From NCBI GenBank assembly GCA_038063635.1, contig JBBTUS010000006.1, positions 13,500 through 77,499 on the forward strand: 64,000 nt of DNA. Direction: 5' to 3'. Numbering within the stretch: the first letter of the stretch is position 1; every line of letters starts with the position of its first letter. This DNA comes from Patescibacteria group bacterium (GTDB taxonomy: Bacteria; Patescibacteriota; Minisyncoccia; Phycocordibacterales; UBA9973). The translations under genes and the position numbers were made by a program. The notes below the pieces were generated by a model that saw nothing but the letters and a program-made list of their open reading frames with translations, had not been told where the DNA came from and did no database searches. Below, piece after piece: positions 1 to 10,690 of the stretch.

Positions 1-440
1 ATTTAATGAAAAGAATTGTTGAATTGCGAAATAAAATAAATCCAGAAACTTTACTCATCGGTAACGGAGATGTCGTAGACATTGACGACGGAAGGAGGAA
101 ATGTGAAGAATATGGTTGCGATGGAGTAATGATAGGCCGTGGAGTTTTTGGTAATCCTTGGTTTTTTCTAGAAAAAGAAAGTGCTGATATTTCAGTTGAA
201 GAAAAATTGAAAGTTCTTATAGAGCACACACAAATTTTCGAGAAAGAACTTTCAGGACCTAAACATAAAAGTTTTGCAGTTATGAAAAAACATTTCAAAG
301 CTTATGTAAATGGTTTTGCTGGCGCTAAAGAACTCCGTACAAAATTAATGAAAACAGAAAACAGCAGGGAAGTGCAGAAAATAATTAATGATTTTTTACC
401 CGCCTTCATTAAAATTTCGGCGAGGCAAGAAAAAATTTGA
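1..440 (+). CDS. dusB: tRNA-dihydrouridine synthase (DusB-like), C-terminal part; the 5' end lies outside the window
   Basis: The ORF is open to the window edge. Motifs GNGDV...GCDGVMIGRGVFGNPW are typical of the Dus family TIM barrel and of the C-terminal helical domain. Confidence 0.65.
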   Translation, partial: LMKRIVELRNKINPETLLIGNGDVVDIDDGRRKCEEYGCDGVMIGRGVFGNPWFFLEKESADISVEEKLKVLIEHTQIFEKELSGPKHKSFAVMKKHFKAYVNGFAGAKELRTKLMKTENSREVQKIINDFLPAFIKISARQEKI

Positions 441-493
441 CCTGTCCCGTAGTAAATTTTGATAAAAATTTTACTATGGGGTAAAATAAGCAA

Positions 494-1543
494 ATGCACG
501 ACTTAGCTTTATATCGCAAATATAGGCCAAAAACTTTCAATGAAGTTCTAGGACAAAACCATATTGTGGATGTGCTTGCAAGTTCCATAGATACAAATAA
601 GATTTCTCACGCTTATCTTTTTGTCGGTTCTAGAGGTACTGGAAAAACGTCGGTGGCTAGGATTTTTGCTGAACAAATGGGTGTAAAGGAAAACGACCTA
701 TATGAGATAGATGCGGCTTCAAATCGCAGTATAGACGATATTAGAGCCCTTCGTGACGGGGTAAGAGTCCTGCCATTTGATTCAAAATATAAAATATACA
801 TTATTGACGAGGTGCATATGCTTACAAAAGAAGCTTGGGGCGCATTGCTTAAAACTCTGGAAGAACCGCCAAGGCATGTTATTTTTATTTTAGCTACGAC
901 AGAATTACATAAAGTTCCGGAAACAATAATTTCCAGATGTCAGGTTTTCACTTTTAAAAAAGCGACTGATTCAATTTTGAAAAATATGATTTTGGAAGTT
1001 ACAAAAAAAGAAGGATTTGAATTAGACAATAGTTCGGCTGAACTTTTGGCAATATTGGGCGATGGCTCATATAGAGACGCGCTAGGCACTCTGCAAAAAG
1101 TTTTAAATTTTAGCAAAAGTAAAAAAATTAAAAAAGAGGATGTTGAAAAAATAACTGGCGCGCCTAAAACAACACTCGTCAATAATTTTATTTCCGCAAT
1201 CGCGGAGAAAAAACTGGAAGACGGAATAATGACAATACGAAAAGCATCGCAAGAAAATTTAGATATGAAATTGTATCTGAAACTGATTATTCAAAAATTC
1301 CGAGTAGCGATAATATTAAAATACGCTCCAAAATTGGAAGATGAAATGGCCAAAGACCTTTCTCCGGAAGATTTAACCTTTTTAAAGAAAACTGTAAAAG
1401 AAGACAAAGAGGGAATATTGCGTTCACCTGCGCTGTCTGTATTGCTTGAGGCATATCAGAATATTGACCGAGCATTTATTACCGAACTTCCGCTAGAACT
1501 TGCTTTGGTGGAGATAATAAGTAAAGATAAGAAAGTTGTTTAA
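494..1543 (+). CDS. dnaX: DNA polymerase III subunit gamma/tau (short form, 349 aa)
   Basis: YRPKTFNEVLGQNHIV...AYLFVGSRGTGKTS is a Walker A in the clamp-loader N-terminus. IIDEVHML is the Walker B with DEVH, and the ATT/SRC sensor motifs are present. Confidence 0.9.
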   Translation: MHDLALYRKYRPKTFNEVLGQNHIVDVLASSIDTNKISHAYLFVGSRGTGKTSVARIFAEQMGVKENDLYEIDAASNRSIDDIRALRDGVRVLPFDSKYKIYIIDEVHMLTKEAWGALLKTLEEPPRHVIFILATTELHKVPETIISRCQVFTFKKATDSILKNMILEVTKKEGFELDNSSAELLAILGDGSYRDALGTLQKVLNFSKSKKIKKEDVEKITGAPKTTLVNNFISAIAEKKLEDGIMTIRKASQENLDMKLYLKLIIQKFRVAIILKYAPKLEDEMAKDLSPEDLTFLKKTVKEDKEGILRSPALSVLLEAYQNIDRAFITELPLELALVEIISKDKKVV

Positions 1544-1557
1544 CAAAGACAATATAT

Positions 1558-1629
1558 TGGGGGGTCGTCTAACGGTAGGACAACAGATTTTGGATCTGTT
1601 TATCTAGGTCCGATTCCTAGTCCCCCAGC
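1558..1629 (+). tRNA. tRNA-Gln (anticodon UUG)
   Basis: A hand-folded cloverleaf fits. Acceptor TGGGGGG/TCCCCCA has a U1:A72 pair and a G73 discriminator, as in bacterial tRNA-Gln. D stem GTCT/GGAC carries a GG-containing D loop. Anticodon stem ACAGA/TCTGT has loop TTTTGGA, giving anticodon TTG at 1590-1592. T stem is CTAGG/CCTAG. CCA is not fully encoded (CC only). Confidence 0.7.
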
Positions 1630-1748
1630 CTTGATAAAACTTAGGTCATTTTCACAAAAATTAACGCGCGCTTTTTGCCACAATAACCGCAAAGGTAACC
1701 GCTAAAAAAGTTATTTTCTTTATAAATAATTACCGGACTTTTATGCTT

Positions 1749-2573
1749 TTAATAAAGCTTATTTACTCCAATAACATCGCCGGCGTTCAGGTCGCGTTTT
1801 TTCGTCTCGCCGTTCGCGGCATAGCCGTACATAGTTTCGTTAGAGCAGTTTGAGTTGTAGAGATCGCCCATACCTACCGAATGGCCGAGTTCATGCGTGG
1901 CGATATTTTCAAAATCCATTTTCCCCGGTTCACCCGCCATTGACCAATCATAGGTTGCGTCGTCGTAGACCTGATCCCATTCAACCAACTGGCGGTTGGC
2001 AGGTCGGCCACCAAAAATGCCCCAGACGATGGTTACCGCAATGGTGTTTGGGTCAGAGAGGTCAGCGAAATATACCTCATTTTGATTGTCAAGCGAAACG
2101 GTGTCGGCTACCAAAGTATCGGCAGTTTCGGCACCATTGCCTAAAATATTAAAAGCCGCGGCAGTTTCCCACTTGGCGATTCCCGCGGTTAGCGTGTCAA
2201 AAACAAAATTTGAACCAAGGCTTCTGGTATTGGCGGGATTCACTATCCATGATTCAGGAGTACCTTTCCATTTGGCGTCTGTTGCCAAAAAGCCGTAACA
2301 GGCAGTCGCACCCGTTTTGGCTTCGCTTGATTTTGCGGCTCCGTCCTTGCGGTGGATAATAGCATAACCCTCAACCTGCTTACCGCTTTTTTGATCAAAA
2401 GCCGTGCCCAAGCTATAAAGGTTGTCGGCCACTTGTACCGCGCTCGCCGGTAATTGAAACTTTGCTTTTTGGCTTTTTGCCAGAGCTATCTGCGGCTGGT
2501 ATGCCAGCAAAGCCCCGTCTGTTCCGATTAAAACCGCCACGGCGACCAAAACAACTAAAAGTTTATTTGTCAT
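1749..2573 (-). CDS. secreted zinc metalloprotease (HExxHxxGxxD motif, snapalysin/metzincin-like), with an N-terminal signal peptide
   Basis: The N-terminus is hydrophobic (LLVVLVAVAVLIGT). The C-terminal ATHELGHSVGMGDLY is a zinc-binding motif with Asp as the third ligand. The gene is visibly more GC-rich (about 50%) than the surrounding genome (about 30%). Confidence 0.65.
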   Translation of the reverse strand: MTNKLLVVLVAVAVLIGTDGALLAYQPQIALAKSQKAKFQLPASAVQVADNLYSLGTAFDQKSGKQVEGYAIIHRKDGAAKSSEAKTGATACYGFLATDAKWKGTPESWIVNPANTRSLGSNFVFDTLTAGIAKWETAAAFNILGNGAETADTLVADTVSLDNQNEVYFADLSDPNTIAVTIVWGIFGGRPANRQLVEWDQVYDDATYDWSMAGEPGKMDFENIATHELGHSVGMGDLYNSNCSNETMYGYAANGETKKRDLNAGDVIGVNKLY

Positions 2574-2880
2574 ATTGATTTTTAATTAAGTATAATTTTT
2601 CGACCTTTGTACATCTAATACCAGTATAGCATTTTCTCAACACCCGCAAATAAAGTGCCGGGTGGTTGGGTGGGGTAAATAAGGCGACCGCAGAAGAAAA
2701 CGACGCAGGCCGAATTGAAAATCGCATAGCGGTTTTTTTTAATGAGAAAGCCGTTGCGGAGAAATTTTTGCATAATAAAATTATGGCAGAGGAATATCTA
2801 GACATCTTAAACGAGAGAGGAATATAGGCGTTTATTAGATTATATAAAATAACTTTATTTCTACGACAACTTACAATATA

Positions 2881-2915
2881 AAAAAGCCTTGATATAAATC
2901 AAGGCTTTTTGTTTT
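2881..2915. terminator. bidirectional rho-independent terminator hairpin
   Basis: Stem AAAGCCTTGAT/ATCAAGGCTTT has a 4-nt loop. It is flanked by an A-run on one side and a T-run on the other, so it works on both strands. It lies immediately downstream of the minus-strand gene 2929..3573. Confidence 0.6.
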
Positions 2916-2928
2916 AGAAACTAGATTA

Positions 2929-3573
2929 TTAGCGAGATAACTGCCATCCACCGCTGGGTGTAAAAAAGACAGGACCACCTCCATAACCATTTGGAGCGTT
3001 TTTGATCATTGGATGTGAATAACCATAAGGAATAGATTTTCTTTCCATTGCTTCTTTGTCCATATTTCCACCAAGACAAAACGCTGGTTTTAAAGATGGT
3101 AGAAGAGTTGGCTTATTGTAAACCTCTGAATAAGATGGAATATTTACAGCTAGATTTTTTTTTGGAAGAGAGGATATAAAGTTATTCATTTTATTCCATT
3201 CAGATAACGTTTTCATGGTTTCTTGTAGTTCTTCTTTTTTTCTCTGTTCCTCTCTTTCTTCTATATCTCCTTGAAGCTTTTTAAAAAATTTTACACAATC
3301 AAGAGAATTAAAACCATATTTGTGAGATATAGAAGTATCTTCTGGAATATGCTTTCCAGTCCATCTTCCAGGATTGAATCCTGTAATTCCATCTTGTTTA
3401 AAAATTCCTCTTACCGCATCACGTTCATCTTGGTGGATGATGTCGTGTACAATTTTAGGAATAAGTTCTGTTGGTCCAGCTAATCTGCCAGGATGGTGGT
3501 CTTCTTCCTCATCCATACAATTTTCCATACCTGCAACATGATTCTTGCAGTGTATTGCCCAAAAATTTTTCAT
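2929..3573 (-). CDS. hypothetical protein (214 aa), with a His/Cys-rich N-terminus and a Gly-rich C-terminus
   Basis: The ORF is long and followed by the terminator. I recognise no family. Confidence 0.45.
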   Translation of the reverse strand: MKNFWAIHCKNHVAGMENCMDEEEDHHPGRLAGPTELIPKIVHDIIHQDERDAVRGIFKQDGITGFNPGRWTGKHIPEDTSISHKYGFNSLDCVKFFKKLQGDIEEREEQRKKEELQETMKTLSEWNKMNNFISSLPKKNLAVNIPSYSEVYNKPTLLPSLKPAFCLGGNMDKEAMERKSIPYGYSHPMIKNAPNGYGGGPVFFTPSGGWQLSR

Positions 3574-3821
3574 AATAATTTATTTTTTAAGTTTTCAAAT
3601 TACATATTTTGTATTCATTTTACCATATACTTAAGTTTTGTAAATAGGCGATAAATAGTAACTATTTCTACTGTAATAAAACCATAAATCCGGTAGTAGA
3701 ATTTCAAATTATTGATTAGTTCTTTCCCGTATTTATTTTTTAATGTAGTTTATGGATTATTAATAATAAAGTTTTAAGTTGTTTTTATGAATCAATAAAG
3801 GACAATTTGAAATTTCACTAA

Positions 3822-3995
3822 CCGGATGAATAAACAAAAAATTGTTTTTATAATACTTCGTTTGGTTATGGGTTTTATGTTTCTTTGGGCGTTTTTTGAT
3901 AAACTTTTTGGCTTGGGATTTGCGACAACCCCTAATCCTCTAACCCCTAACCCCCAATCCTCTAATCTCTAATTCGCGCGAATAGGCGAATAGAT
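3822..3995 (+). repeat. left copy of a direct repeat (about 170 bp, internally deleted) flanking the fic cassette; the right copy is 4966..5478
   Basis: Long identical nucleotide runs were seen by eye at both ends (the start of doxX, and the tail ending ...ttcgcgcgaataggcgaatag). Confidence 0.7.
3826..3972 (+). pseudogene. truncated duplicate of the doxX-like gene at 4970..5422 (5' 110 nt fused to the 3' tail region; 48 codons)
   Basis: Nucleotide stretch 3826-3940 is nearly identical to 4970-5084 (MNKQKIVFIILRLVMGFMFLWAFFDK versus MHKQKIVFIILRLVMGFMFLWAFFDK). It is joined to a tail resembling 5408-5478 (ccaatcctctaatctctaattcgcgcgaataggcgaatag). Confidence 0.6.
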
Positions 3996-4123
3996 AAAAT
4001 AAGAAAAATTAAGTAAAAAAATTCAACGACAGTACATATTTGATTTTAATATATAAATATGTTATAATATATAATGTGTAATACATATTTGATTGGTTTT
4101 GTTATACTTAATATAATAATAAA

Positions 4124-4336
4124 ATGTTAAAAAATCTTATAAAAAGAGACAAAAATATGTCTAGATTGGTTGATCTTCAATTAGAAGCAAGTAGGTTGCC
4201 GGATCTTTCTCATATCGAAAAAACTAAATTTGACCATCTTCTGGCTATTGATCAACTTTACTACTCAAGTAAATTAGAAGGATCTCACTTAACAAAAAGT
4301 GGGCTTGAGCAGGCTATACATGGGAAAAATATTTAG
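4124..4336 (+). CDS. Fic N-terminal segment carrying the inhibitory (S/T)xxxE(G/N) motif (SSKLEGSHLT); either a VbhA/FicA-like antitoxin or the frameshifted N-terminus of a class II Fic
   Basis: The motif SKLEG lies upstream of a Fic-motif ORF. It overlaps the next ORF by 38 nt in a different frame. An A5 run at the junction (gggaaaaat) could be a slippage or sequencing site. Confidence 0.5.
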   Translation: MLKNLIKRDKNMSRLVDLQLEASRLPDLSHIEKTKFDHLLAIDQLYYSSKLEGSHLTKSGLEQAIHGKNI

Positions 4337-4967
4337 TAGACCTAGGAACGAAAAAGAGCTGCAGGAGCGCGAAGCTGCTGGACTTTGGAGAGCACAAGCA
4401 CTTGCAAAAAGTATTGGAGAAAGTAAAGAAAAAATAACTCTTTCAGTCATTTTGCGTATACATAAAATTTTTCTAGAAGATGCTAATCCAGAAATTGCTG
4501 GAAAGTTTAGAGTAATAGGTCAAGATATTAAAAAACTTACCTGTATGATACCTCCACCCGGTTTTGTAGTGCAAGAGGAAATGTATAAATTTTGGAGAGA
4601 ACTCGATTCTCGTCTTTCAAAAGTTCCTCCTATGCTAAAAGGAAAGAAAATATCTAAAACGTCCTTAAGAAAAAGAAATGAGAAAGTTATTAATCTCGCT
4701 GCATGGACACAATATCAGATTACTCGTATTCATCCTTTCTGTGAAGGTAACGGTCGCATGGCAAGATTGATGACAAATTTTATTTTATGGCGTTATAAAT
4801 TTTTACCTACAGATATTAAATACGAAGGCGAAAACAAGCAAAAATATTTAAAATCTCTTTGTGAAATAGATTATACTGGTGATTATAGAATGTTAGTTCA
4901 GCTTATTATAAAAGGTATGACAGCATCTTATAAAAGACTTATTAAAAAGCAAAAGGGGAAATTTTAA
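4299..4967 (+). CDS. fic: Fic family protein (AMPylase/toxin core) with the canonical HPFxEGNGRxxR motif
   Basis: IHPFCEGNGRMARL matches the Fic active-site motif HxFx(D/E)GNGRxxR. Confidence 0.8.
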   Translation: MGLSRLYMGKIFSRPRNEKELQEREAAGLWRAQALAKSIGESKEKITLSVILRIHKIFLEDANPEIAGKFRVIGQDIKKLTCMIPPPGFVVQEEMYKFWRELDSRLSKVPPMLKGKKISKTSLRKRNEKVINLAAWTQYQITRIHPFCEGNGRMARLMTNFILWRYKFLPTDIKYEGENKQKYLKSLCEIDYTGDYRMLVQLIIKGMTASYKRLIKKQKGKF

Positions 4968-5478
4968 CCATGCACAAACAAAAAATAGTTTTTATAATAC
5001 TTCGTTTGGTTATGGGCTTTATGTTTCTTTGGGCATTTTTTGATAAAGTTTTTGGCTTAGGATTTGCGACAACTGCAGACAAAGCATGGATTAACGGGGT
5101 ATCGCCAACAGCTGGTTTTCTTTCTTTCGCGACAGAAGGTCCTTTCGTTAATATATTTCACGCCCTCGCCGGTGTTGCTGTTGTTGATTGGCTATTTATG
5201 CTCGGACTTTTGTTTGCAGGACTAACTCTTGTATTTAATAAATTTATAAAATGGGGATGTATTGCCGGATGTTTAATGCTATTTTTTATGTATTTGTCTT
5301 TGCTCTGGCCGGAAAATAATCCAATTATTGATGAACATATCGTTTATATTTTAGTACTTATACTAATCGCTTTTAATAATAAAAATAACATCGAACAAAA
5401 ACCCACCACCCTTAATCTTTAATCTTTAATCCCCAACCCCCAATCCTCTAATCTCTAATTCGCGCGAATAGGCGAATA
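4966..5478 (+). repeat. right (complete) copy of the direct repeat pair bracketing the fic cassette
   Basis: Its start (4971-5084) and tail (5408-5478) match 3822-3995. Confidence 0.7.
4970..5422 (+). CDS. DoxX-family small membrane protein (four TM helices)
   Basis: At 150 aa and hydrophobic, it has a DoxX-like topology. The N-terminus LRLVMGFMFLWAFFDK is typical of DoxX/DoxD-like proteins. Confidence 0.5.
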   Translation: MHKQKIVFIILRLVMGFMFLWAFFDKVFGLGFATTADKAWINGVSPTAGFLSFATEGPFVNIFHALAGVAVVDWLFMLGLLFAGLTLVFNKFIKWGCIAGCLMLFFMYLSLLWPENNPIIDEHIVYILVLILIAFNNKNNIEQKPTTLNL

Positions 5479-5508
5479 GTTATTATCTAAAGTTTAATAT
5501 AATAAAAA

Positions 5509-6237
5509 ATGAAACTCAAAATTTTATCTTGGAATATATGGGCTGGAACTTATTTAGATGGGGTAATAGAATTTTTAAAAAACATTGATGCTGATATTAT
5601 TGCTCTTCAAGAGGTAGTAGAGGATGACAGAAGAAATATAATAGAAATTATTGCAAAAAAATTAGGGTATGAATACGCTCATGCAGTTGATATGAACATG
5701 CCATTAAAATTTCTTCCTGGACAAAAAAGTGACGATAAAAGAACTATAAAATATGGTAATGCAATTTTAAGTAAATATAAAATTACAAATAGCAATATAT
5801 ATGAGTTAAGTAAAGTAAAAGAATTTAGACGATTGATAATAGAAGTTGATATTAAAATTGAAGATAAAACTCTTCATGTTTTTAGCGTTCATTTGAAGCA
5901 TAATCATCAAAAACCATCGGAAATACAAGACTTGGAAGCTGAAAATTTACTAAAACTTTTATCTGAAAAAAATACAATTGTGATGGGAGATTTTAATGCC
6001 TTGCCTGAAGACACTACAATCAAAAAAATGAGTAAGACATTAATAAACACTGAAAAAAATTCAGCTACCCCAACATGGTCAGTTTATAAAGAAGGATGTA
6101 CTGGTTGTCTTGTTGAAGATATTAAATATAAATTAGATTATATATTCACAAGTAAAGATATAAAATCAGATTTTTTTAAGGTTTATGAATCAAAAAGCTC
6201 TGACCATTTGCCCATTTCAGCTGAAATAGAAATATGA
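5509..6237 (+). CDS. endonuclease/exonuclease/phosphatase (EEP) family protein
   Basis: LKILSWNIWAG...DADIIALQEV...GDFN...SDHLPI are the conserved EEP catalytic motifs. Confidence 0.75.
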   Translation: MKLKILSWNIWAGTYLDGVIEFLKNIDADIIALQEVVEDDRRNIIEIIAKKLGYEYAHAVDMNMPLKFLPGQKSDDKRTIKYGNAILSKYKITNSNIYELSKVKEFRRLIIEVDIKIEDKTLHVFSVHLKHNHQKPSEIQDLEAENLLKLLSEKNTIVMGDFNALPEDTTIKKMSKTLINTEKNSATPTWSVYKEGCTGCLVEDIKYKLDYIFTSKDIKSDFFKVYESKSSDHLPISAEIEI

Positions 6238-6262
6238 GTAATAATTTTGCTATAATAAACTT

Positions 6263-6838
6263 ATGGAAAACAAATTAAATTGCATTATTATTCATGGATG
6301 TCCTTCAAGCAAAGAATCAACAATGAATCCGGAAACAAGGACATATGATAAGCATTGGATTCCTTGGATTAAAAAAGAATTATTGCTGAAGGGGATTAAA
6401 ACTGAAACTCCATCAATGCCAAATCCGTGGGAGCCGAATTATGAAGCTTTTAAGAAAGAATTTGGAAAATATCAAGTTTCCGAAAATACCATTTTAATAG
6501 GACATAGTTGCGGATGCGCTTTTTTGGTTCGTTGGCTAGGCGAATTAAAGCAAAAAATTAAAAAGTTGATTTTAGTCGCGCCTTGGAAAATTCCAAGTGA
6601 AAATGATATTTCTAGAGAAAATTTTTATATGTTTCCAATAGATGAAACTATTAATTCTCGCGTAGAAGGGATTGTTATATTTACATCAGATAACGAAAGG
6701 GAAGATGGAAAGAAAAGTGTAGAAATTTACAAAAAAAGCCTTAATAGTAAAATTATAGAACTAAAAGGAAAAGGGCACTATAAATACAGTGATATGGGAA
6801 CTGAAGAATTTCCAGAATTACTAGAGGAGATTAAATAA
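6263..6838 (+). CDS. alpha/beta serine hydrolase (RBBP9/YdeN-like)
   Basis: IIIHGCPSS...LIGHSCGC is the GxSxG nucleophile elbow. Its size matches YdeN-type serine hydrolases. Confidence 0.5.
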   Translation: MENKLNCIIIHGCPSSKESTMNPETRTYDKHWIPWIKKELLLKGIKTETPSMPNPWEPNYEAFKKEFGKYQVSENTILIGHSCGCAFLVRWLGELKQKIKKLILVAPWKIPSENDISRENFYMFPIDETINSRVEGIVIFTSDNEREDGKKSVEIYKKSLNSKIIELKGKGHYKYSDMGTEEFPELLEEIK

Positions 6839-6886
6839 TTTTAGCCTCGCCCGGCTCGCTCGTAGGTCTATGGCCGAGGGAAAAAT

Positions 6887-7774
6887 TTATCTATGAAATG
6901 GCAATTCAATAAAGAAAGTAGTTCCTTTATTTCTGCCTTTTGACTTGGCATATATCTTGCCATGATGTCGAGCAATAATTTGCCTTGAAAGGTTAAGCCT
7001 TATGCCCATACCGTCCGGATGAGATAATACGGCGTTTTTAGCTCGGAAAAATCGTGAAAAGATTCTTATTTTATCATGAAAGCTCAATCCCGGACCATCG
7101 TCTCTAACGCTCAAAATTAGTTTATTCTTATTAAAAATACAATCAATAAAAATTTGACCATTGGCTGGCGTGTAAATAATCGCATTTTCAATAATAGAAT
7201 CTACAACAAAAGAAATTTTTTTTAAATCAGCCGTGAGCATGGGAATATCCTTAAAAGTTGGAACTTGAAATGTCAAACTTTTTTTATTTATTTCCTCCCG
7301 ATATTTTACAATTGATTTTTCAACAATATCGCGCAGGGAAGTGGCTTGAAAAATATAGCCTGTTTTATCGTCTATATTTTTTATTCCTGCAATCAAATCC
7401 ACTATTTCAATCAATCTGCTCGTGGCGTTATTTAAACTTTGTAAATAGGTAAGTCTTTCGTTCTGAGATAAGTCTTTTTCCAATTCTTTTGAAATCCAAT
7501 TTATTCTGGTTAATGGAGTACGAAATGTATGATTTACTATTGTGGTAAATTCATGTTCAATTTGATTTTTATTTGAGTATAATTCTATATAGCTATATCC
7601 TATATATAAAATAATTATAAATACAATAAGAGGAATAAACCAAACGGGCAAATTAAATAACGCGGTAAGATACTCGTGCCGTAACGCAAGATAAAATATT
7701 ACAAATAAAAACAGTATAATGAAAAAGATTTTTACTAATTGCCGGAAGTTTTTCATATCTATATTATAACTCAT
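6887..7774 (-). CDS. sensor histidine kinase (two N-terminal TM helices, HisKA and HATPase_c domains), with no adjacent response regulator
   Basis: The H-box is NHTFRTPLTRI, the G1 is RDDGPGL, and the G2 is GMGIRLNLSRQI. Confidence 0.8.
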   Translation of the reverse strand: MSYNIDMKNFRQLVKIFFIILFLFVIFYLALRHEYLTALFNLPVWFIPLIVFIIILYIGYSYIELYSNKNQIEHEFTTIVNHTFRTPLTRINWISKELEKDLSQNERLTYLQSLNNATSRLIEIVDLIAGIKNIDDKTGYIFQATSLRDIVEKSIVKYREEINKKSLTFQVPTFKDIPMLTADLKKISFVVDSIIENAIIYTPANGQIFIDCIFNKNKLILSVRDDGPGLSFHDKIRIFSRFFRAKNAVLSHPDGMGIRLNLSRQIIARHHGKIYAKSKGRNKGTTFFIELPFHR

Positions 7775-7810
7775 TATTATTTTAACTCAAAATTATGTTA
7801 TAATATCAAT

Positions 7811-8647
7811 GTGACGAAAAAATATATCGGAATTATTTTATTTTTAATACTCTTTTTGACCCCTTTTTACTTGACTTTTGCGCAAACTTCAAATGCCGGC
7901 TTTATACCCGGAAATATTTGGTATTCTAAGGATCCTTTTGAAGAAGGAGATAAAATAAAGATATATACCTTAATCTACAATCCTGATTCAAGGCAACTGT
8001 CAGGCACAGTATTTTTTTTTGATAAAACTATATTTTTAGGAAGCAAAAGTTTTACTGTTGCAGGAAAGGGAATTCAAGATGTTTCCATAGATTGGACAGC
8101 GACAATTGGCGACCATACAATCTTTGGACAAATTCAAGACGCAAAATTTTTAACGGCAAATAATATTTATCAAAACGCATCCTTATCTGAAACAAAAACA
8201 TCGGAAAGCAAGCGCAGTGTTTCAAAAAAAATAACTTTAAACACAATTGGAGAAAATATAAGTGATTCAAATACCGTTTCAAATATTCAAAATTTTGTAA
8301 AAGAAAATACTCCAGAAGTTGTTTCCAAAACAATAGACACAACTGTAAGCTCGGTTGAAGAATTTCGAGAAAAAATAGGAACTTTTTCAGAAAATAAAAA
8401 AGAAGAAGTGAAAAAAGAGATAAAAATCATAGAAGATAGTAAAATTACGCAAAATTCTGATGCAACAAAAAAAGATACTGAAATTAATCCAATAAATCAA
8501 AATACATTTTTAAAACCATTTAAATATGCAGAACTTTTCGCTTTGACTGTATTTTCAGCTGTTTTCAACAATAAATACATATTTTATGGCCTAATAGTTC
8601 TAATCATTTTCTTTGTTATACGCTATATTATACGCAAGATTTTTTAA
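7811..8647 (+). CDS. hypothetical exported/membrane-anchored protein
   Basis: The ORF track starts at 7739 and overlaps the kinase. The GTG at 7811 gives MTKKYIGIILFLILFLTPFYLTFAQT, a signal-peptide-like start, and is preceded by a TTATAAT -10 box. The C-terminus has a TM helix. Confidence 0.45.
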   Translation: MTKKYIGIILFLILFLTPFYLTFAQTSNAGFIPGNIWYSKDPFEEGDKIKIYTLIYNPDSRQLSGTVFFFDKTIFLGSKSFTVAGKGIQDVSIDWTATIGDHTIFGQIQDAKFLTANNIYQNASLSETKTSESKRSVSKKITLNTIGENISDSNTVSNIQNFVKENTPEVVSKTIDTTVSSVEEFREKIGTFSENKKEEVKKEIKIIEDSKITQNSDATKKDTEINPINQNTFLKPFKYAELFALTVFSAVFNNKYIFYGLIVLIIFFVIRYIIRKIF

Positions 8648-8682
8648 TTTGTAATTTTGCTTAAAATGTGTAATATAAAGCT

Positions 8683-8973
8683 ATGATGCTTCGAATTTTC
8701 GCTTCTATTTTACTTTTATTTTCAATCTTATTTTTGCCTTTTTGGGTTTCAGTTATCCTAGCTCTTTTAGGAATGCTGTATTTTTCTTTATTTTATGAAG
8801 CTGTGGTTTTATTTTTATTATCAGACTTGCTTTATGGCGCGCCAGAAGCAAGATTATTTAATATATTTTTCTTTTCATTTATTTTATCTATAATATTTTT
8901 ATTAGTTATAGAATTTTTAAAAAAGAAATTAAAATTTTATAAGAAAAATCAGCATGTCTTTAAAGATTTTTAA
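8683..8973 (+). CDS. small hydrophobic membrane protein (96 aa), possibly MreD-like given its position upstream of PBP2
   Basis: It is hydrophobic throughout and overlaps the PBP2 start. No motif was recognised. Confidence 0.4.
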   Translation: MMLRIFASILLLFSILFLPFWVSVILALLGMLYFSLFYEAVVLFLLSDLLYGAPEARLFNIFFFSFILSIIFLLVIEFLKKKLKFYKKNQHVFKDF

Positions 8974-10690
8974 AAAACATAAAATAAAAAATGTAAACTC
9001 CTTTGTGGAACCGGATGAGATATTTTTGGATTCGGAAAATTTGGAAAATTTTGACAGCCAGCAGTTTGAAGGACGAATAGAAAAACAAATACATAAAAAA
9101 ACCGTTATTTTTCTTGGTATTTTCTGTGTTTTTTTTATAGGATTATTTTTAATCCAGCTAGGACGCTTGCAAATACAAAAAGGCGAAGCCTATTTAAAAA
9201 GAAGCGAAAATAATACTTTAACAAAACAAGTTATTTTTGCCGATAGAGGAGTAATTTATGATAGAAATAATGTAAAATTAGTTTGGAATGAAAAAGGAAA
9301 AGATATTACTGCTCAAGCTACAACAACAGAAATAGCGAAAGATTTTAAAATGCCGACAAGAGAATACTTATCGCCCGGATTTTCACATATTTTGGGCTAT
9401 GTAAGCTATCCAACGCAAGATAAATCCGGAAAATTTTGGCAAACTGAATTTATTGGAATAAATGGCCTTGAAAAACAATATAATGACAAAATAAAAGGGG
9501 AGAATGGTTCAAAAACAGTGGAAATAGATGCGACGGGAAAAGTTCAATCAGAAAATGTGGTTAATTCTCCAAAACTCGGCGCGGATTTGGTAACTACACT
9601 TGATTCACGCATTCAAAAACAATTATTTTTATTTATAAAAGGATTGGCAGAAAGCCGTTCTTTCGTTGGCGGAGCCGGAGTAATAATGAATGCGCAAAAT
9701 GGAGAAATTTTAACTTCAGTCAGTTTCCCGGAATATAATTCTAAAATTTTATCTTTAGGTAAAGACACGAAAACAATAAAAAATTATTTTTCGGATAAGA
9801 GAAAAGTTTTTATGAATAGGACAATTTCCGGCTTATATACTCCCGGTTCCGTAGTAAAGCCGTTTTTTGCATTAAGCGCTTTAACTGAGGGAATAATAGA
9901 CCCTTCAAAGCAAATTCTTTCAACAGGCTCTATTTCTATTCAAAATCCGTATTTTCCAGACCAAACAACGGTTTTTAAAGACTGGAGAGTAAATGGATGG
10001 ACAGATATGAGAGAAGCTATCGCCGTATCTTCTGACGTGTATTTTTACACTATTGGCGGAGGATATCAGGGACAAAAAGGACTTGGTATCGTAAATCTTG
10101 GAAAATACGCAAGAATGTTTGGCATAGGCGCAGGGTTAACTGGCATTGATTTGTTGGGAGAAAAAGAAGGAACTATTCCAAGTATTGAATGGAAAGAGGA
10201 AAATTTTCCCGGTGACCCTTGGCGTATTGGAAACACTTATCACACATCTATCGGACAATATGGATTTCAAGTTACCTTAATGCAAATGGTTCGCGCTGTT
10301 TCTGCTTTGGCCAATAATGGCAAACTAGTCACTCCGCATTATATACTGGGAGATACTGAAAAAGAAAAACAATTTTCAATAATAGATATTAAAAAAGAAA
10401 ATTTTGATGTGGTGCACGAAGGCATGAGACAAGCTGTCACTTATGGCACAGCTATAGCGCTTGATGTGCCTTATGTAAGTGTCGCCGCTAAAACCGGTAC
10501 GGCACAATTGGGAGTTTTAAAAAATAAAGTTAACTCTTGGGTTATGGGATTTTTCCCGTATGAAAATCCTAAATACACATTTGTCATAATGATGGAATCC
10601 GGGTCTTCTACAAACAGTACGGGAGCATCAAGTGTTATGAGGCAACTATTGGATTGGATGTCTGTAAATACTCCAGAATATTTTAAATAA
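8954..10690 (+). CDS. mrdA: penicillin-binding protein 2 / peptidoglycan D,D-transpeptidase
   Basis: It has an N-terminal TM. SVVKP (SxxK), SSD (SxN) and KTGTA (KTG) are the transpeptidase motifs. Confidence 0.85.
   Translation: MSLKIFKKHKIKNVNSFVEPDEIFLDSENLENFDSQQFEGRIEKQIHKKTVIFLGIFCVFFIGLFLIQLGRLQIQKGEAYLKRSENNTLTKQVIFADRGVIYDRNNVKLVWNEKGKDITAQATTTEIAKDFKMPTREYLSPGFSHILGYVSYPTQDKSGKFWQTEFIGINGLEKQYNDKIKGENGSKTVEIDATGKVQSENVVNSPKLGADLVTTLDSRIQKQLFLFIKGLAESRSFVGGAGVIMNAQNGEILTSVSFPEYNSKILSLGKDTKTIKNYFSDKRKVFMNRTISGLYTPGSVVKPFFALSALTEGIIDPSKQILSTGSISIQNPYFPDQTTVFKDWRVNGWTDMREAIAVSSDVYFYTIGGGYQGQKGLGIVNLGKYARMFGIGAGLTGIDLLGEKEGTIPSIEWKEENFPGDPWRIGNTYHTSIGQYGFQVTLMQMVRAVSALANNGKLVTPHYILGDTEKEKQFSIIDIKKENFDVVHEGMRQAVTYGTAIALDVPYVSVAAKTGTAQLGVLKNKVNSWVMGFFPYENPKYTFVIMMESGSSTNSTGASSVMRQLLDWMSVNTPEYFK

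Follow-up and report, generated by a model that had tools for sequence, protein, structure and literature searches.

A recently inserted matrixin-like metalloprotease gene beside tRNA-Gln in a groundwater Patescibacteria genome

The stretch of DNA analysed here, referred to below as the window, comprises 64,000 nt of a Patescibacteria group bacterium (assembly GCA_038063635.1, contig JBBTUS010000006.1, positions 13,500 to 77,499 of the forward strand) and carries, next to a tRNA-Gln gene, the gene of a 274-amino-acid zinc metalloprotease of the matrixin type. This gene came with a foreign fragment of 1123 bp that was recently inserted beside the tRNA, most likely by illegitimate, microhomology-assisted entry. 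Horizontal gene transfer is clear here, and the case is an ordinary one. The original prediction, made from the letters of the window alone, had proposed that the gene was acquired horizontally at this tRNA, and the proposal is upheld by the outlying composition of the gene, both in the window and among 83 loci of its family, and by an empty site in the closest relative.

Composition of the protease gene

The tRNA-Gln gene (anticodon ttg) was located at 1558-1630 on the plus strand by ARAGORN and by the Rfam tRNA model (56 bits), and is the only tRNA placed in the window by both. The open reading frame (ORF) of the protease, predicted as a metalloprotease ORF of 274 amino acids with the motif HELGHSVGMGD, is confirmed at 1749-2573 and matches Peptidase_M10. 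It lies on the minus strand, so that its stop codon, not its start, faces tRNA-Gln across 118 bp; the predicted spacing of about 120 bp holds, but it is the end of the gene and not its beginning that adjoins the tRNA.

The window as a whole has a GC content of 0.329. In 62 non-overlapping ORFs, picked mechanically across the window as a reference, mean GC is 0.331 (standard deviation, sd, 0.038) and mean GC at third codon positions (GC3) is 0.243 (sd 0.047), against 0.490 and 0.502 for the protease ORF (z = 4.2 and 5.5). The next-highest values of any window ORF are 0.414 for GC and 0.341 for GC3. Measured over 100-bp windows, GC is 0.45-0.55 over the protease ORF and 0.27 at its start codon. 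The compositional anomaly is real and far above chance, and the predicted difference between a gene of nearly 50% GC and neighbours of about 30% is borne out. Native genes of similar GC, which had been named beforehand as a possible objection, do not occur elsewhere in the window.

A word-indexed search for relatives of the protease returned 2478 proteins at E <= 0.001, the named sources among these including Roizmanbacteria, Daviesbacteria and Paceibacterota (Patescibacteria) and a Pacearchaeota archaeon; members bear the NCBI name 'matrixin family metalloprotease'. A scan of GTDB representative genomes gave 80 loci in many lineages of the candidate phyla radiation (CPR) and in DPANN archaea, namely Pacearchaeota, Woesearchaeota, Micrarchaeota, Aenigmarchaeota and Nanohaloarchaeota. 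The family is found at 45-60% identity across many CPR bacteria and DPANN archaea. A few carriers are labelled Gammaproteobacteria, Bdellovibrionales or Methanosarcinales, and some of these labels may be binning or labelling errors. A viral origin was rejected, as a search for relatives of the protease in IMG/VR returned none. The literature on matrixins and Patescibacteria, and on plasmids and mobile elements of the Hainich aquifer, held nothing specific to this protease gene.

Over 83 family loci the GC of the gene follows that of its flanks (r = 0.90, slope 0.74, intercept 0.15) with a mean offset of +0.042 (sd 0.034), and the offset in the window, +0.160, is the largest of all. The gene is thus compositionally at home in most lineages and foreign in the window genome. 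It is extremely improbable that it is a native gene whose GC reflects amino acid composition or selection, or that it was joined to the locus by a chimera of assembly or binning. The family does average 0.04 above its flanks, probably owing to a Gly/Ala-rich protein; GC3, however, is nearly free of amino-acid constraint and stands at 0.50 against 0.24, and family members in genomes with a flank GC of 0.28-0.33 have a GC3 of only 0.18-0.34, compared with 0.50 for the window copy. Relatives of the host lack the protease at this site, and the insert holds the stub of a foreign neighbour gene, as described below.

The exact protease protein was found on three contigs, one from the NCBI metagenome-assembled genome (MAG) GCA_964356995.1 and two from ENA assemblies of replicate 0.1-µm filter samples taken at Hainich groundwater well H41. 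All three are 100% identical to the window across the region, junctions included, and a chimeric assembly is for this reason unlikely; native sequence stands on both sides of the insert, within one contig, in the assemblies of two replicate samples and in the NCBI MAG. The closest named relatives of the neighbouring DnaX belong to Candidatus Nomurabacteria and to Paceibacterota, and the host is a Nomurabacteria-like Patescibacteria genome of about 33% GC from Hainich groundwater.

The empty site in relatives

Labels consisting of L and a number denote the loci and contigs of the comparison. Three comparator lineages were reached through orthologues of DnaX, and in all three tRNA-Gln(ttg) lies downstream of dnaX and the protease is absent at that site; protease orthologues syntenic at this tRNA, which the original prediction had singled out as evidence against acquisition, were therefore not encountered. 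In L088/89 (DnaX 84% identical) the order is ParB, RelA/SpoT, TopA, DprA, SerRS, Dus, DnaX and tRNA-Gln, followed after an interval by PBP2, S41 protease, L9 and L27. The distance from the tRNA to PBP2 is about 2 kb in L088/89, with different small genes, and 7.3 kb in the window. In L091/92 divergence is complete past the tRNA.

The closest relative is L087 (DnaX 96% identical). Immediately after its tRNA-Gln (3827-3898) comes TTGCGGAAAAATTTTTGC ('TTGCGGAAAAATTTTTGCATAACAAAATCATG'), with which a NUDIX gene begins, and the gene of a 145-amino-acid membrane protein begins 23 bp past the NUDIX end. Window positions 2754-2821 match 3900-3967 of L087 (85% identity, E = 2e-10), 2820-2845 match the last NUDIX codons at 4436-4461 (96%), and 3830-3928 match the start of the membrane-protein gene at 4496-4594 (97%). 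From these matches the ancestral order was tRNA-Gln, NUDIX, membrane protein. Native sequence resumes at 2754, and the 1123 bp at 1631-2753 are therefore an insertion that starts no more than about two bases from the tRNA 3' end. The insertion is recent, since its composition shows no amelioration toward that of the host.

Anatomy of the insert

The coordinates of the insert and of the features around it are collected in Table 1. At the left junction CCCAGCC is joined to TTGATAAA, and at the right junction AAAGCCG is joined to TTGCGGAG; the sole sequence common to them is AGCC(G)TTG. Nucleotide homology to related protease loci covers 1689-2693 and is found nowhere beyond the insert, extending over 1727-2620 in L004 (88% identity), 1715-2693 in L094 and 1689-2514 in L095. 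An upstream block ending in CCCCACCCAACCACCC is common to the window, L094 and L004, and so is a conserved extended -10-like element, TGCTATA(C/T)T (TGCTATACT), at 2623-2631.

On the other side of the protease, window positions 1723-1661 read (ATA)KKITFLAVTFAVIVAKSAR*. This short stub is the beginning of the gene that comes after the protease in L095 ('MKKITFLAV...IALDAGHGG') and in L004, and its parent gene codes for an N-acetylmuramoyl-L-alanine amidase of the Amidase_3 type. Since one end of the insert lies inside the amidase gene, the insert is an arbitrary piece of a protease-amidase locus and not a defined element.

The original prediction had described a GC-rich leader of 350 bp at 2574-2928. 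Only its proximal part stands: 2574-2753 belongs to the insert, and GC is 0.46-0.47 over 2601-2750 but 0.26-0.31 over 2751-2928, the remainder being the native NUDIX remnant and a terminator. A search with Rfam over 1400-4200 revealed no structured leader or riboswitch above threshold, and folding against shuffled sequences gave no unusual structure in the 187-nt upstream region (z = -1.1) or in the 120 nt downstream (z = -0.13). A degenerate tRNA copy at 2655-2752, which MAFFT had placed opposite the tRNA, was rejected for its low identity; Rfam gives no second tRNA at E <= 1, and L094 and L004 share the stretch.

Table 1. Features of the insert and its immediate surroundings in the window
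Feature	Position	Strand	Remarks
tRNA-Gln(UUG)	1558..1630	+	Native, intact; same tRNA after dnaX in L087, L088/89 and L091/92
Foreign inserted fragment, 1123 bp	1631..2753		tRNA 3' end on one side, native TTGCGGAGAAATTTTTGC on the other
Dead amidase 5' stub, 21 codons	1661..1723	-	Start ATG changed to ATA; 'KKITFLAV' equals 'MKKITFLAV' of L095
Matrixin-like zinc metalloprotease gene, 274 amino acids	1749..2573	-	N-terminal hydrophobic segment, HELGHSVGMGD, M248, C92, C243
Donor-derived upstream region of protease gene	2574..2753	-	BLAST homology to L094 up to 2693, by eye to about 2725
Native NUDIX remnant	2754..2845	+	Reduced to its 5' region with the first codons, joined to the last codons; about 468 bp lost relative to L087
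Hairpin terminator, perfect 13 bp, downstream of the 214-amino-acid gene	2881..2910		Outside the protease insert
Hypothetical gene, 214 amino acids	2929..3573	-	GC 0.355, native-like
Internally deleted membrane-protein gene copy	3826..3996	+	5' part of about 100 nt, 97% to L087, plus 64-nt tail

Donor-type loci and their contexts

Close relatives of the protease, at 65-90% amino acid identity, are found in contigs whose GC matches that of the gene. Flank GC is 0.489 in L094, 0.51-0.52 in L096-98 (Hainich wells H14 and H43), 0.48-0.50 in L005/6 (Hainich H41), 0.52 in L099, 0.515 in L173 and 0.519 in L175. Within this close clade gene GC (0.44-0.52) and flank GC (0.33-0.54) show a correlation of only r = 0.09 (n = 15). 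The window copy has L004 as its sister, and the pair is nested among copies whose surroundings are richer in GC. L004, with a flank GC of about 0.375, is likewise a low-GC recipient; in it a high-GC block of about 2.5 kb (384-2893), containing the protease, amidase and 171-amino-acid genes, starts about 110 bp past a tRNA-Gly.

The amidase gene comes after the protease in L004, L095 and L096-98 and before it in L107, and the gene of the 171-amino-acid protein follows in L004, L008, L094, L095 and L175. Between L004 and L094 identity is 83% over the protease gene but 95.5% over the 171-amino-acid gene, so that the module is a recombination mosaic. The genomic context differs in every long contig that carries a close copy, and some copies have conjugation or phage genes as neighbours. 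In L094 (JGI Ga0315274_10029729, 1-7569) the protease and the 171-amino-acid gene lie between Replic_Relax and two coupling proteins of the TraG/TrwB type; the GC of this contig equals that of the gene, and the contig may represent a conjugative or mobilisable element whose host is Patescibacteria-like. L005 has N6/N4 methylases, terminase and DarT in its context, L175 has Transposase_mut and ResIII, and in L097, L173 and L174 the surroundings are those of an ordinary chromosome. Although the genomes of L097 and L173 are clearly related (NusG, SIMPL, a 214-amino-acid ORF, Cob_adeno_trans, L19), they carry the protease at different positions.

In at least six loci from different assemblies (L005, L099, L011, L030, L034 and L072) the protease start lies 110-130 bp from a contig end, which may reflect strain-level heterogeneity at the borders of insertions. 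No common upstream motif was found in seven contig-end loci.

It is possible, though rather doubtful, that the protease module, with or without its amidase and 171-amino-acid genes, is a recombinase-free 'wandering' cassette. Such a cassette would be exchanged at high frequency among co-occurring groundwater Patescibacteria (GC 0.33-0.54), with conjugative or phage-like elements as its vehicles. Illegitimate or short-homology recombination would fix it, with a preference for tRNA-flanking hotspots.

Mode of integration

The source of the fragment was a locus in which a matrixin-like protease gene is followed by an Amidase_3 gene (and then by that of the 171-amino-acid protein), of the type seen in contigs of 0.48-0.52 GC from the same aquifer. 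Besides the intact protease gene and the truncated amidase stub, the fragment brought along about 180 bp from upstream of the protease, in which a promoter-like element lies. It may have arrived by DNA uptake or on a conjugative or phage-like element. Natural competence is established in Patescibacteria, and a DprA gene lies upstream on the same contig. Integration took place most likely by illegitimate, microhomology-assisted recombination within about two bases of the tRNA-Gln 3' end. We infer this mode because the ends of the fragment are arbitrary, a neighbour gene is cut, no recombinase or att repeat accompanies the insert, and only AGCC(G)TTG is common to the junctions.

A classical tRNA-targeting island, in which an integrase joined attP to the 3' end of tRNA-Gln and the cargo was the protease, possibly together with the 214-amino-acid gene, fic, EEP and Ser_hydrolase, is quite improbable. 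The start of the insert no more than about two bases from the tRNA 3' end is as such an island would have it, the region past tRNA-Gln differs in every relative examined, and the close copies L004 and L173 lie less than 400 bp from tRNAs. An integrase or recombinase, however, was not found: there is none among the ORFs searched against Pfam, and no other ORF of positions 1-9000 looks like one. A second copy of the tRNA 3' end is likewise absent from the 64 kb (patterns of 24 and 13 nt, with 2-3 mismatches allowed). The end that cuts the amidase gene is no defined element terminus, and the neighbouring genes are native in GC. Among 94 family loci a tRNA lies within 500 bp in 9, against 5.5 expected under an ORF-based null (p = 0.10). 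The att/integrase role that the original prediction had assigned to the tRNA is thus not sustained, and the tRNA marks only a position.

Two observations that had seemed to bear on such an island were rejected. An exact 10-nt repeat, AGCCTTGATA, at 1627-1636 and 2885-2894 would have been a candidate att site; it is at chance level for 1.5 kb and would enclose the resident NUDIX remnant, which is native according to L087. An apparent threefold enrichment of tRNAs family-wide, obtained with a random-interval null, is not significant under the ORF-based null.

It is also unlikely that the fragment was first inserted in another strain and reached this genome by allelic replacement, that is, by homologous recombination through the dnaX/tRNA-Gln and NUDIX flanks. 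Relatives have kept these flanks (the tRNA is conserved and DnaX is 84-96% identical), other presence/absence variants occur nearby, such as the Ser_hydrolase gene missing in L002, and a DprA gene is in the neighbourhood. No second strain with the same insertion and diverged flanks was found, however, the three carrier contigs being 100% identical, and such a replacement would alter only the site of the primary insertion and not the origin or structure of the insert.

Several points weigh against the account given here. The mechanism is deduced solely from the lack of signatures of a recombinase or an att site and from a fragment whose ends are arbitrary, and the similarity of the junctions at 7 of 8 nt could also be the core at which a site-specific recombinase, so far unrecognised, acts in trans. 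A position at the tRNA 3' end is typical of integrase-mediated events, and L004 and L173 also have tRNAs within 400 bp. The contig of L087 is only 6 kb long, so that the empty site is visible and the rest of that genome lies outside the comparison. The promoter is a matter of sequence resemblance, and a consensus scan did not call the extended -10-like element. Finally, the nearest copy, L004, has 88% nucleotide identity (synonymous divergence, dS, 0.39) and is likewise a compositional outlier in the low-GC genome that carries it. As dS is 0.39 and GC3 is nevertheless at the level of the high-GC contigs, most of the divergence predates the transfer, and the direct donor is unsampled.

The protease

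The N-terminus of the protease has a lysine at position 4, a hydrophobic core from L5 to I16 (Kyte-Doolittle up to 3.7) and A-L-A at 30-32, from which a Sec signal peptide or a signal anchor, and thus export or membrane anchoring, may reasonably be predicted. The motif HELGHSVGMGD occupies residues 227-237. The Pfam family Peptidase_M10 (PF00413) matches with 32.5 bits (cut-off 24, E = 1e-7) over residues 205-274 only. A family profile compared with PDB matches the matrix metalloproteinases (MMPs) MMP-7, MMP-10 and MMP-3, with D237 aligned to the third zinc-binding His of MMP-7 and the C-terminal '..GDxxGxxKLY' aligned to the C-terminal helix of MMPs.

An AlphaFold2 model from an alignment of 28 sequences reached a mean predicted local distance difference test (pLDDT) score of 47.5 and was discarded; the model used, from 109 homologues, has a pLDDT of 86.9 and a predicted TM-score (pTM) of 0.83. 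Its best matches by Foldseek are the catalytic domains of MMP-7, MMP-2, MMP-12 and karilysin (E 1e-8 to 1e-6, target TM 0.65-0.73), and the top 50 are all MMPs or karilysin. According to the model and Foldseek, the five-stranded sheet and three helices of the MMP catalytic domain are present, preceded by a confident beta-meander at about residues 37-76.

In the alignment of 109 sequences H227, E228, H231, G234, M248 (the Met-turn, within ETMYGY), C92 and C243 are invariant, and every family-invariant residue is retained in the window protease. Position 237 is Asp in 108 of the 109 sequences and His in one, so that HELGHSVGMGD departs from the matrixin zinc motif HExxHxxGxxH at the third His. 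No motif resembling PRCG of the cysteine switch PRCGxPD occurs in the protease sequence; the invariant C92 may act as a switch or may pair with C243 in a disulfide. The protein is assigned, from its sequence and model, to the metzincins, as a Pfam M10 member with an MMP fold and a predicted His-His-Asp zinc site, and is predicted to be a zinc endopeptidase, exported or membrane-anchored.

The ratio of nonsynonymous to synonymous substitution rates (dN/dS) is about 0.13 (0.12-0.17 against seven relatives), which indicates purifying selection and a functional gene. Because the protease is linked to a cell-wall amidase in its own clade, envelope or cell-surface proteins, either of the bacterium itself or of a host, are plausible targets. 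A role in host interaction is speculation.

Neighbouring genes and turnover of the locus

The genes beyond the insert are native in composition. The original prediction had regarded the 214-amino-acid ORF, fic, EEP and Ser_hydrolase as accessory, and they are indeed variable among relatives, but they were not acquired with the protease. The 214-amino-acid ORF (2929-3573) has no match in Pfam or NCBIfam, and L087 does not have it, NUDIX and the membrane-protein gene being only 23 bp apart there; it entered in a separate insertion older than that of the protease. Homology to the ORF of L097 was rejected, the two being equal in length and unrelated.

The junction of the deletion in the NUDIX gene lies in a short AGAGGAATAT repeat. 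A full copy of the membrane-protein gene, of 150 amino acids, is present at 4970-5482, so that two copies flank the fic module. The 64-nt tail of the deleted copy ends in CTAATTCGCGCGAATAGGCGAATAG and occurs twice in the window, the second time at 5420-5482, and not in the orthologue of L087. Between the two copies, 4124-4967 holds a likely toxin-antitoxin pair of the class-I Fic type: a 70-amino-acid ORF at 4124-4336, whose SSKLEG fits the Fic-inhibitory motif [S/T]xxxE[G/N], is the antitoxin candidate and overlaps the start of a Fic-domain ORF at 4299/4320-4967 (HPFCEGNGRMAR; Pfam Fic, E = 2e-15).

The 736 bp at 6236-6971, which hold the entire Ser_hydrolase gene (6263-6838), are missing from L002, a contig obtained from a replicate sample of well H41 (Hain_H41 R2). 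As L002 is otherwise identical, presence and absence of this gene are a polymorphism in the population. Downstream of tRNA-Gln this lineage has a hotspot at which genes are gained, lost and degraded, as is seen from the NUDIX deletion, the extra 214-amino-acid gene, the duplicated membrane-protein gene and the Ser_hydrolase variant.

Comparison with known systems

The protease resembles karilysin of Tannerella forsythia and vertebrate MMP-7 in its predicted catalytic fold, in the zinc helix HELGHSxGxx, the Met-turn and the C-terminal helix ending in ..GDxxG(I/V)xKLY, and, like their catalytic domains, it is a minimal protease without a hemopexin domain. It differs from them in that its third zinc ligand is Asp and not His, in three extra residues that lie between zinc motif and Met-turn and include an invariant Cys, and in an N-terminal beta-meander (about 37-76) that takes the place of the helical MMP prodomain and has no PRCGxPD cysteine switch; sequence similarity is limited to the last 65-70 residues of the window protease. 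Snapalysin (MEROPS M7), the small neutral protease of Streptomyces, shares with it HExxHxxGxxD with Asp as third ligand, a Met-turn and a small secreted form. The snapalysin model NCBIfam NF033628, however, scores 16 bits against a cut-off of 300, and the best matches in fold and sequence are MMPs.

Integrase-mediated tRNA islands resemble the locus in their position at a tRNA 3' flank, their deviant composition and an accessory secreted enzyme as cargo, but the insert of the window is a single-gene fragment that truncates a neighbour gene and has no integrase or att repeats. An integron gene cassette was rejected, as the 120 nt downstream show no unusual fold (no dedicated attC model was run), the amidase stub lies there and there is no integrase. 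The protease is a minimal metzincin of the MMP/karilysin type and not a snapalysin, and the locus is neither an integrase island nor an integron cassette.

A gene-tree study of MMPs in 2025 reported a well-supported CPR clade, with Parcubacteria as the source of transfers to Microgenomates and some proteobacteria, and with sporadic members in archaea, Pacearchaeota among them (PMC12587646). That clade has the same Pfam family (PF00413, MEROPS M10-like) and the same taxa (Parcubacteria, Microgenomates, Pacearchaeota), and thus the matrixin-like family of CPR and its horizontal spread were already known. Being gene-tree work, the study contains no insertion at base resolution, no protease-amidase-171-amino-acid module and none of its varied contexts, and its main text contains neither 'aspartate' nor 'third zinc' (PMC12587646).

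Implications

Gene gain in the variable regions that flank tRNAs is commonplace, and no new kind of system is revealed here. What is added is the base-level anatomy of one recent acquisition, a donor-type module and those of its contexts that adjoin mobile-element genes, one clade in which the GC of the gene is decoupled from that of the host, and the near-universal Asp as third ligand among the aligned relatives. The locus provides a base-resolved case of recent gene gain in an uncultivated ultra-small bacterium, with an empty-site comparator and donor-type loci from the same aquifer. Within the protease clade the gene moves faster than its composition can adjust. The truncated neighbour gene shows that an arbitrary fragment of DNA, not a defined element, was integrated, and the case is useful evidence on how secreted accessory enzymes come into CPR genomes with no obvious integrase. 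Should the protease module prove to be a wandering cassette, it would mark a gene flow more active than expected in a group regarded as having few mobile elements, and an extracellular function under strong selection would be indicated, for example in processing of a host cell surface.

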